Positions 1 through 2,672 of a stretch of 64,000 nt of DNA are shown here, piece by piece. Source of the DNA: Sphaerodactylus townsendi (Eukaryota); assembly GCF_021028975.2 (NCBI RefSeq), contig NC_059439.1:33232001-33296000 (forward strand), given 5' to 3'. The first letter of the stretch is position 1. Each line of letters opens with the position of its first letter. The notes beneath the pieces were generated by a model, which was not told the DNA's origin, made no database searches, and worked only from the letters and a program-made list of their open reading frames with translations. Made by a program: the position numbers and the translations under genes.

Positions 1-597
1 AGATTTTGCTGTGCTGATCCCTAATTTTGTCACGTTGCTTTTTCCACAGGATGTTCAAGTTGGCCTTTGGGAGGCAAATAGCTGTCTTCTGCTACTGGTG
101 GGAAAAGAGCATGTTCCGAAGATGGAGGGATTCTGCCATAAAATCCCAACGTAAAGACAACGGATTCTGAAAATCTCCCTCAATTTGAGTGGCCACGTAC
201 AATAAATAAAATTATTGCAGCTTAGCACTTTGTTTCATTTTGCGGAGTATTTTTTGGGATGGAGTTGAGCACTACTTTGAAAACCATTTCGTAGTCTGTA
301 TTTCCTGTGAATTGTTTACTTAGTGGCAATTTTATGCCAATCTGTACTCTGTTCCACTGAAAAATAAAAGTGCAGTCAGTTGTGGTGCAGCGGTAGAGGA
401 AATAGTATGCTTCCGCATTAGAAAATAGCCCTGAATTAATATGAGAATTACCATTCATTTTTAAGCACAGGCTTTGTCAAACCCATTATTCTATGCCGTA
501 TTAGTCATGGTACTTTGATAAAGGGGCCTTTATAGCACATTGAATAACTCAGCAGAATTTGCTTTTTTGAAACAACGTCATCCGTTTCCTTTGCAAA

Positions 598-2007
598 ATG
601 GCTGATGGAGCAGGCATGTCTACCTCTGAAGTGAACTCTCCTCTCTGTTACTTCAAAACTAATCGCAGAGGTCAGACAATTCGAAGTCAGACTCAGCAAC
701 TTATACTGAACGTGTACTCGCGCATTCGGGAAGATCAGCCGAGCCTTAGCATAGAGGAATGTGTTGGAGAAACCTCGAGGCTGACGGGTGTGTCGTCTGC
801 GCCCATCTACAGGGCAAAGAAGCAATGGCACACAGGAGGCGGAGTTCTCGGGACGCCGGGCAAGAAACGTCCTCGCAAATCCGAGACGAAGGGAAGCAAC
901 GTGAAGTGTGACAGCTCTGCTCGTTGCGCAATAAGAGCGATTGTACATAAGTATTTCTTCAGAAACGAGATACCCACGCTAAAGAAAATACTTAGTGATG
1001 TAAACGGCGACCCGGATCTGCCGTGCATTTCACAATCGACGCTGCACCGCATTTTGAAAGACATTGGCTTTGCCTACAATCGCCGACATAAGGATTGCAC
1101 ATTGACCGACAAGCCTGAGATCACAGCGTGGAGGCACCGGTATTTGAGAAAGATTCGCCAGTTTCGTTCTGAGGGGAGGAAGATCTTTTTTCTGGATGAG
1201 ACGTGGGTGAGCGAGGGGCACGCGGTCTCAAAATGTGGGCAAGACCAAATTGTCAAGCCAACGAAGGAGGTGTTCCTTAAGGGCTTGTCTGCGGGACTGA
1301 GAGAGTCGTCTGGGAAGGGGAGTCGCTTGATTTGCGCTCACTGTGGGAGCGAGGAAGGGTTTGTGGAGGGTGCGTTGCTTCTTTTTCGGTCTGCAACAGG
1401 CGATTACCATCAGGAAATGAACGGGGACAGCTTCGAAAAATGGTTCGGCGAGCTGCTGCGGAAACTGCCTCCCGAAAGCGTGATTGTTATGGATAATGCC
1501 TCTTGTCATTCTGTGACGTCTGAGAAGATCCCAACAAGCGGGTCCAAAAAGGACGCCATCAGGACGTGGCTAACGGAGAAGGGGATCTCTTGGGAGCCGG
1601 AGCAAGTTAAGCCTGAGCTTATCCTTCTGGTTCAAAGAGAAAAGCACAGGTTCGTTCGGTTTCGGGCAGACGAAATGGCGGTTGCTGCCGGGCATCAAGT
1701 GCTTCGCCTCCCTCCCTACCACGCGGAATTGAACCCCATCGAGTTGGCGTGGACTCAGATAAAAAGACACGTGGCGATAAACAACAACACCTTTAAACTG
1801 AATGACGTTAAGAATTTATTTGAGGACGGAGTGCATGCAGTGACTCCTGAGATGTGGAGCGGTTTTGTCCAACGTGTGACCGAAAAGGAGCAGCAATTTT
1901 GGGATCTTGACTTTCTCCAGGAAAACAACGAAACATCCCCACGAAAGATCCATTTGGGGTCAGACTCTGACAGCCCTTCCTCTGAGAGTGAAGAGAGCTA
2001 TGAATAA
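598..2007 (+). CDS. Intact IS630-Tc1-mariner DDE transposase, DD82E (Sailor-like)
   Basis: Uninterrupted 469-aa ORF. Catalytic motifs FFLDETW (D200), IVMDNASCH (D299) and LRLPPYHAELNPIELAW (E382), with 82 residues between D299 and E382. N-terminal HTH-like region, basic NLS-like PGKKRPRK, winged-helix-like PTLKKI...ISQSTLHRILKDIGF, acidic Ser-rich tail. Confidence 0.9.
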   Translation: MADGAGMSTSEVNSPLCYFKTNRRGQTIRSQTQQLILNVYSRIREDQPSLSIEECVGETSRLTGVSSAPIYRAKKQWHTGGGVLGTPGKKRPRKSETKGSNVKCDSSARCAIRAIVHKYFFRNEIPTLKKILSDVNGDPDLPCISQSTLHRILKDIGFAYNRRHKDCTLTDKPEITAWRHRYLRKIRQFRSEGRKIFFLDETWVSEGHAVSKCGQDQIVKPTKEVFLKGLSAGLRESSGKGSRLICAHCGSEEGFVEGALLLFRSATGDYHQEMNGDSFEKWFGELLRKLPPESVIVMDNASCHSVTSEKIPTSGSKKDAIRTWLTEKGISWEPEQVKPELILLVQREKHRFVRFRADEMAVAAGHQVLRLPPYHAELNPIELAWTQIKRHVAINNNTFKLNDVKNLFEDGVHAVTPEMWSGFVQRVTEKEQQFWDLDFLQENNETSPRKIHLGSDSDSPSSESEESYE

Positions 2008-2672
2008 ATAAGTAAAAACTCCCAAGGTGAGATCTTTCGTTGGCATTACTCTGTGTGCCTCTCCCTGGGCTATTCCTCAATCACCAACAAATTCATGAGG
2101 GGGTTTTTCGTTTTCATTTTTGTGTTTGAACGGAGGAGAGCGGGGCAGAACTTGGTAGGCACTAGGACCTAAGCGGAACATTCTACAGTAAAGAAGGTGC
2201 AGCATGTGACGGATGAACTCTTATCTTTCAGTGGAACAGTAGCCTGGCTTTGCAGATATCAAAATGCCATGTTATTAATGGGTGGAATTACAGTGTTCTT
2301 TATGTCTCTGTCTTGTGAAGATAGAAAAGGCTTTACTCCCAAGGAAGTTTTCAACACTGAAACCAAATGGCATTTAGGTTTTGAACATTGATTTGCCTTT
2401 ATTCTTTCCCCTTCTGTTGTAACTTGAGTTCCTTAGCATGCAGAATCCAAACTTTCCGGAAGTACTTCCCTAAGAATGCTAGTGCCGGTAGACTTTCAAT
2501 CAGTTGTGATCTCGCCAATTATAAAGTTTGTGCTTCAAACCAAATTTATTTTTTCCCTGCCTGTCATTGTTTACATGAACACTGGTTGTATTCAGATGCG
2601 ATGGTAAATCTGATTTAATCGTAGGTGTGCCAAAGGAACAAATGTATGAAATACTTATTTTTGCATCCTGGT

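Follow-up and report, generated by a model that had tools for sequence, protein, structure and literature searches.

Near the left edge of a 64,000-nucleotide stretch of the genome of the gecko Sphaerodactylus townsendi (NCBI RefSeq assembly GCF_021028975.2, contig NC_059439.1, positions 33,232,001 to 33,296,000, forward strand; hereafter the window, with positions counted from its first letter) lies a transposase gene that resembles the DD82E/Sailor transposons. Its open reading frame (ORF) begins with the ATG at 598, ends at 2007 on the forward strand within a stop-to-stop frame (571–2007) that is itself intact, and encodes 469 amino acids (aa) with the catalytic triad D200/D299/E382 and a D299–E382 spacing of 82 residues. 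An earlier note on this DNA, made from the letters alone, had read the ORF as intact with a DD82E triad, and so it is. The landmarks listed there are also in place, namely an in-frame TGA at 568–570, AGs at 609–613, a donor AAG/GTGAGA at 2026/2027, AATAAA at 2003–2008 and two motifs at 222 and 508. The records in NCBI, UniRef and nr give exactly these 469 aa as the protein. The element that carries the ORF and both terminal inverted repeats (TIRs) spans 347–2239 (1,893 bp), and the features of the locus are as follows.

38..50, forward strand: host-derived splice acceptor (ttttccacag/G, cut at 49/50) that opens the coding exon; from a joint in sequencing runs X2 and X3, in single-copy DNA
50..597, forward strand: 5' untranslated region (UTR) part of the coding exon, made of 297 nt of host flank and the left end of the element; X2 and X3 contigs are contiguous over 48–1072
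343..346, forward strand: left target-site duplication, TGTA (TATA in the family), from comparison with the ends of relatives
347..374, forward strand: left TIR, 28 bp, from the inverted pair and relatives
598..2007, forward strand: intact DD82E transposase ORF, 469 aa, ATG in strong Kozak context; ratio of nonsynonymous to synonymous substitution rates (dN/dS) on its branch 0.27
685..1062, forward strand: two helix-turn-helix-like helical subdomains (aa 30–79 and 106–155), predicted TIR-binding region, from the AlphaFold model, a Mos1 match and a sub-cut-off HTH_29 match; dN/dS of the N-terminal half 0.16
1183..1782, forward strand: RNase H-like catalytic core (aa 196–395) with D200, D299 and E382, from Pfam DDE_3, the model and the fold match
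2008..2670, forward strand: 3' UTR, running through the AATAAA at 2003–2008, the 2026/2027 donor and the right TIR; X2 contig to 2544, X3 contig to 2670
2214..2239, reverse strand: right TIR, 26 bp; the terminus and target duplication together lack 4 bp, from the inverted pair and relatives

The inverted arms at 349–374 and 2214–2239 match at 23 of 26 bases, above the best arm match in 200 Markov-resampled flank pairs (21/26). The earlier note had found no matching TIRs, and in this it was mistaken; of the two motifs that it had considered, the one at 222 is single-copy host DNA and the one at 508 lies inside the element's 5' UTR, and neither is a TIR. Related copies and miniature inverted-repeat transposable elements (MITEs) give a family end consensus of TATA-CTCT(T/G)TTCCAC..., the hyphen marking the start of the TIR. 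The left end of the window copy reads TGTA-CTCT (343–346, TIR from 347), and at the right end 4 bp are gone across the terminus, with TA remaining at 2240–2241. Because the right terminus is damaged and no near-identical copy is among the genome matches listed, the sequence supports the view that the window copy is immobilised. The earlier note had come to the same view from the supposed lack of TIRs, an argument that falls away.

As described in passages of Shi et al. 2021 (PMC8533490), Sailor is defined by DD78E–DD111E spacing, typically DD82E, with TIRs of 23–57 bp that usually start with GT or CC, elements of 1.38–6.98 kb, ORFs of 323–676 aa and a TATA target duplication; the same passages state that Sailor was not found in vertebrates and list Parasteatoda, Araneus, Ixodes and Aphis among its hosts. 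The gecko element agrees with this description in its DD82E spacing, TATA duplication, 28-bp TIRs, 1.9-kb length and 469-aa ORF, and the nearest named relatives of its protein are arthropod (about 40–45% identity) and include host genera from that list. It differs from Sailor as reported in those passages in its gecko host, in the extinction of the mobile family and in having five copies under selection. The gecko TIR starts with CT in the window copy and in most pattern matches, the pattern itself having fixed CT, and with CC at a KRAB-fused paralogue discussed below.

The TATA-plus-TIR pattern, allowing at most one mismatch, occurs at 319 ends genome-wide and at 0 in a reversed control. Twenty of these ends were fetched, 12 of which proved two-ended within the stretch, mostly MITEs of about 350 bp; TATA stands at both ends in 7 of these 12, one end having been selected for TATA, and their best pairwise identities are 62–83%, with no young MITE among them. 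A DNA search of the genome gave at least 54 matches (40 of 2,348 candidates scored), the long non-self ones being 70–82% identical, and a protein search gave at least 100 (91 of 146 candidates scored), five of them full-length and stop-free. Among the matches listed, the nearest copy to the window element is 82% identical, where the earlier note had named many near-identical TIR-bounded copies across the genome as one sign of a recent selfish insertion. Since the nearest copy stands at 82% and the MITEs are at most 83% alike, the Sailor family of this gecko is, judging by copy divergence, extinct as a mobile family.

Beyond the gecko proteins, no full-length relative exceeds 46% identity, and those with a name are arthropod. 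A quick tree of database homologues, with no outgroup, places the gecko proteins together in a single clade with a long stem (0.61) and gives this clade no firm sister group. From these relationships we infer that the family arrived horizontally, from a donor that has not been sampled and was probably an invertebrate. The donor was not found, with no 50%-identity cluster between 54% and 78% identity and no vertebrate-labelled match in two further protein searches, one longer and one shorter (3 and 40 matches). If an assumed neutral rate of 2–3e-9 per site per year holds, the invasion would be roughly 40–70 million years old.

The window copy and four more intact copies at unrelated loci (L002, L004, L005 and L006) were aligned with 21 broken copies, these being the longest distinct loci, with duplicates and short pieces excluded. 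The copy tree is star-like, with a terminal branch of 0.098 for the window copy versus 0.09–0.21 for the broken ones. The 21 broken copies hold 117 frameshifts and 73 stops, and at their rate 10–20 disruptions would be expected in the window ORF, where 0 are observed (chance at most 4e-5). In a branch codon model, the dN/dS of 0.27 for the window copy compares with 0.82 for the broken tips (twice the log-likelihood difference 29, p 7e-8), and the other four intact copies have values of 0.44, 0.17, 0.22 and 0.28. Because parallel CpG decay could bias dN/dS, all CpG-touched codons were also removed, and on the 212 of 459 codons kept the window copy stands at 0.245 versus 0.78 for the broken copies (p 0.01). 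The constraint extends over both halves of the protein, at 0.16 versus 1.03 in the broken copies for the N-terminal half (p 3e-8) and 0.36 versus 0.70 for the catalytic half (p 0.02). Uncorrected Nei-Gojobori dN/dS is 0.14–0.21 over the 10 intact pairs and has a median of 0.46 (range 0.18–1.04) over the 204 broken pairs, and pairwise dN is 0.09–0.19 among intact copies versus a median of 0.235 among broken ones. Comparison among the copies thus supports purifying selection on the window ORF after insertion.

A low dN/dS might also stem from a long unsampled active lineage, the window copy then being a selfish insertion that is recent or still mobile. Such an origin would suit a branch dN/dS equal, within error, to that of the internal (active-element) branches (0.36, p 0.21), the recognisable state of both TIRs and the high ratio of observed to expected CpG (0.97, versus 0.09–0.37 in the broken copies). 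Yet the neutral branch length without CpG codons is 0.102 for the window copy, equal to the 0.109 of the broken ones; the right terminus is damaged, the nearest genome copy among the matches listed is only 82% identical, and organisms C and D hold copies 92–96% identical, C holding the host flanks as well. We find a selfish insertion scarcely credible. Regarding the CpG ratio itself, it is 0.53–0.87 in the other four intact copies, and the intact copies are higher in GC content; low germline methylation, selection or GC-biased conversion could account for their high CpG.

Three further organisms (B, C and D) have sequencing runs that share words with the ORF. Contigs of organism D tile 590–2009 at about 92% identity with 0 gaps, while organism C covers 590–1973 at about 96% identity with one net 12-nt deletion and also carries the host flanks (96–97% identical), no listed contig bridging an element end. 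The longest pieces of organism B (run X5) are identical to the window, with gaps in cover, and are uninformative on selection. The identity of 92–96% for the C and D copies compares with 82% for the nearest paralogue in the gecko genome. After one paralogue-only row and one inside an indel had been dropped from 40 difference rows, 27 of 38 classified differences to C and D are synonymous, versus a neutral expectation of 28–33%, and 0 are stops; the 27/38 figure leans upward because the row sample favours rows also supported by paralogous contigs. For organism C, the closer relative, the figure is 16 of 24 with the same sample bias. Neutral evolution would predict about 4 frameshifts along the C and D branches, where 0 were seen (p about 0.02). 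In C and D, amino-acid changes and the 12-nt deletion cluster at codons 209–229. We consider the cross-species support for selection moderate, and it agrees with the within-genome result.

Runs X1, X2, X3 and X6 were compared over the 6 kb that precede the window and over the window up to position 4000. A GT..AG joint that skips 4,408 nt and lands at 49/50 is present in X2 and X3 and absent in X1 and X6, and the unique intron DNA is barely covered by X2 and X3, which are probably RNA. The 49/50 acceptor proposed in the earlier note is thus used, and because window 1–345 is single-copy in the genome, it is host DNA. The upstream exon (127 nt, G000:C15:33227515-33227641) has stops in all three frames, as does the region 50–597, which holds 9 short upstream ATGs. 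About 220 nt at the start of the X2 contig belong further upstream of this exon, and a CpG island with an AG/GTCAGT donor (L021 364/365) is a fitting candidate for their place. This island, some 9.7 kb to the left of the window and past the end of a PARP gene, would be where transcription starts, and translation would start at ATG 598. A G>A difference at L025 1563, in the upstream non-coding exon, is seen in run X2 only and may be an allele or editing.

The earlier note had offered an exapted gene or an alternative exon of a gene starting further left, the latter making a host-transposase fusion through the 609–613 acceptor and the 2026/2027 donor. X2 and X3 contigs are unspliced over 48–1072 and 1326–2544/2670, rare isoforms being able to escape contigs, and since both proposed sites are read through, the window gene is a stand-alone gene and not a fusion. 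One might still argue for a coding fusion from the use of the 49/50 acceptor, from the WWE+PARP gene upstream on the same strand, from the KRAB fusion at one paralogue and from the dropping of rare isoforms by contigs. However, the upstream exon and 50–597 are closed in all frames, the recorded protein is the 469-aa ORF, a KRAB exon was not found in the 40 kb upstream or in the window, and the PARP gene ends in a stop and an AATAAA of its own some 11.4–11.7 kb left of the window, for which reason the transcript is not favoured as read-through from that gene either. A coding fusion at this locus is therefore very improbable. The exaptation part of the earlier proposal is supported by the selection, the spliced transcript and the C and D copies, whereas the fusion or alternative-exon part is not supported for this copy. 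The 3' part of the WWE+PARP gene lies at L022 3574–8606 (forward strand), 11–16 kb left of the window, and ends shortly before the CpG island. KRAB-A exons are 127 nt long, and the 127-nt upstream exon was rejected as a KRAB-A exon, 190 of 500 shuffles reaching its score against that of the paralogue.

At the protein level, the window ORF has a Pfam DDE_3 match (E 2e-11) and a weak HTH_29 match below the cut-off. In the AlphaFold model of the 469-aa protein (mean predicted local distance difference test score, pLDDT, 88.3), two N-terminal subdomains built of helices precede a core with an RNase H-like fold. By fold, the model comes closest to Mos1, Sleeping Beauty and SETMAR (catalytic domain), and there is a sequence profile match to SB100X. 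Across 115 non-gecko homologues, 103 alignment columns are conserved to at least 85%; the window protein departs from the conserved residue at 15 of them, and at 8 of these 15 it also differs from the majority of its own family (N205, W214, S221, A225, P237, Y303, Y355 and H426). All eight private changes lie C-terminal of D200, with H426 beyond the catalytic core, and the DNA-binding half has 0. Judged by these residues, the window protein is probably weakened as a nuclease.

RAG1 and PGBD5 are domesticated transposases that act as nuclease or recombinase, and the host may likewise keep this protein as a catalytic enzyme acting at TIR-like sites. The triad is kept in all five intact copies, the catalytic half is constrained (0.36 versus 0.70, as above) and the RNase H-like model is confident, yet there are private changes beside the catalytic residues (N205 and Y303), motif decay in the paralogues and no young MITE among the 12 compared; we regard continued catalysis as unlikely. 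Another reading is that the protein has a role unrelated to its own TIRs, with new DNA targets or as a scaffold, or was kept solely as a dominant-negative repressor during the activity of the Sailor family and is now decaying. The moderate constraint, the cluster of C and D changes at codons 209–229 and the lack of recent activity in the Sailor family would fit this, although the DNA-binding half is the most constrained part and the differences to organism C are mostly synonymous (16/24, from a biased sample). We think it quite improbable.

The four other intact copies are also represented by Sphaerodactylus townsendi database proteins, which are 74–77% identical to the window protein and match L002, L004, L005 and L006 at 99.8–100%. 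Retention of the five intact copies is likely to have been independent, because in the tree they are interleaved with broken ones at several places and have only scattered repeats in common upstream. Copies L002, L005 and L006 form part of a subfamily in which an intron follows the first ~18–25 codons, as it also does in the broken L013, L044 and L048. At L005/L064 (G000:C3:3864378-3869850, reverse strand) lies a KRAB-Sailor transposase fusion gene, P0003 (569 aa), whose KRAB domain (E 2.9e-18) is in the first of three host exons upstream of the element's left TIR. In the NCBI model, on which the junctions rest, these host exons splice to the element's internal acceptor, which is also present in broken copies of the subfamily. 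L005 deviates least of the five intact copies at conserved sites (7/103). Catalytic motif decay in the paralogues includes N300, A301, H304 and deletions at 214–243.

KRAB-transposase fusions repress at cognate TIRs, according to the Fig. 3 legend of Cosby et al. (bioRxiv 10.1101/2020.05.07.082677). As in such KRABINER-type fusions, P0003 splices host KRAB exons to a full transposase through an element-borne acceptor, and its transposase is under purifying selection. The window copy, in contrast, is not fused and its acceptor is host DNA rather than transposon DNA, and Sailor is not among the source superfamilies named in the passages of Cosby et al. on which we draw. Like the TIGD genes, CENP-B and SETMAR, the window gene is a probably fixed transposase copy selected after the death of its family, with the DNA-binding part best conserved (passages of PMC7325037). 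The TIGD genes are described there as pogo-derived, ancient, syntenic across vertebrates and mostly with altered triads, while the gecko gene is confined to its lineage, still has both its triad and its TIRs, and belongs to a set of five parallel retentions.

Taken together, domestication of the window gene is well supported and we hold it to be highly probable. As to function, our preferred reading, to which we give a probability of roughly 0.62, is an immobilised Sailor transposase that has been kept by purifying selection and now serves as a sequence-specific DNA-binding protein, predicted to bind the dispersed TIRs of its family, with a weakened nuclease. We favour the TIR-binding role because constraint is strongest in the DNA-binding half, while drift has touched residues beside the triad. 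A CpG-island promoter and a host acceptor would already have lain upstream of the site where the element inserted, and the element would then have lost its right terminus. The copy may have been kept since its protein binds the family TIRs, possibly together with the KRAB-fused paralogue, acting first as a brake on the Sailor family and now as a regulator at leftover MITE ends.

Several points weigh against this reading. Binding, translation and phenotype are all inferred, and the retained triad and the constraint on the catalytic half fit a retained enzyme. The frameshift counts of the broken copies come from automatic alignment and may run somewhat high, and, as mentioned previously, the dN/dS of the window branch is indistinguishable from that of active-element branches. 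In the cross-species comparison, the 40 rows are part of 143, the remainder of which could hide a stop in C or D; 10 of the 20 rows lacking paralogous-contig support are synonymous (p 0.03–0.08); the organism D contig leaves the window sequence right after 2009, and flanks were seen for C only. Runs X2 and X3 come from one study and are not on record as RNA, and the 5' UTR holds 10 upstream ATGs in all.

Other features of the window lie outside the element. A MITE-like element with short TIRs occupies 3303–3690; inside it an 82-bp unit occurs in four repeats, its palindromic arms are long, and it has no relation to the Sailor element. The earlier note held every other transposon fragment in the window to be broken; a rough check bears on this in part, in that none of the 11 other ORFs of at least 170 aa has a transposon Pfam match. 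An intact 378-aa stop-to-stop ORF at 7798–8934 (reverse strand), also without Pfam match, looks repetitive and aromatic in its N-terminal part and, in its C-terminal part, rich in Ser/Thr and like beta-hairpins, as judged by eye; this may be a resemblance to lectins joined to aerolysin-type pore-forming proteins. Exons that we take to resemble CCNB1IP1/HEI10 and TTC5 are among 18522–18842, 19807–20226 and 24471–28388 (all forward strand). A ribosomal L17-like start, below the Pfam cut-off, lies at a CpG island at 55766–56641 (forward strand), and the only Rfam match, a weak tRNA-family one (36.7 bits) at 42534–42605 (reverse strand), is possibly the head of a tRNA-derived short interspersed element.

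Transposase domestication is known as an event, but a vertebrate Sailor family with five parallel retentions, one of them a KRAB fusion, was not found in print: our literature search gave no report of vertebrate Sailor or of these genes, and a mention could stand in subscription journals, in Repbase/Dfam or in the supplementary files of Cosby et al. In a broader and more tentative view, which we rate below even odds, this is the first vertebrate Sailor family, horizontally acquired by dwarf geckos and domesticated five times; four bare TIR-binders and one KRAB repressor would then form a transcription-factor family particular to this lineage, which would regulate the genome via several hundred to a thousand leftover TIR sites. 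The finding brings into a lizard a superfamily that had been described as absent from vertebrates. There one short-lived invasion left five genes under selection at unrelated loci, next to dozens of siblings that are equally old but decayed. These siblings are a built-in neutral control, and the MITEs reveal the predicted binding site together with its copies across the genome, so that one can test directly how a bare transposase is retained before a host domain is captured, or in the absence of such capture, and whether the bare and KRAB-fused copies act on the same sites.
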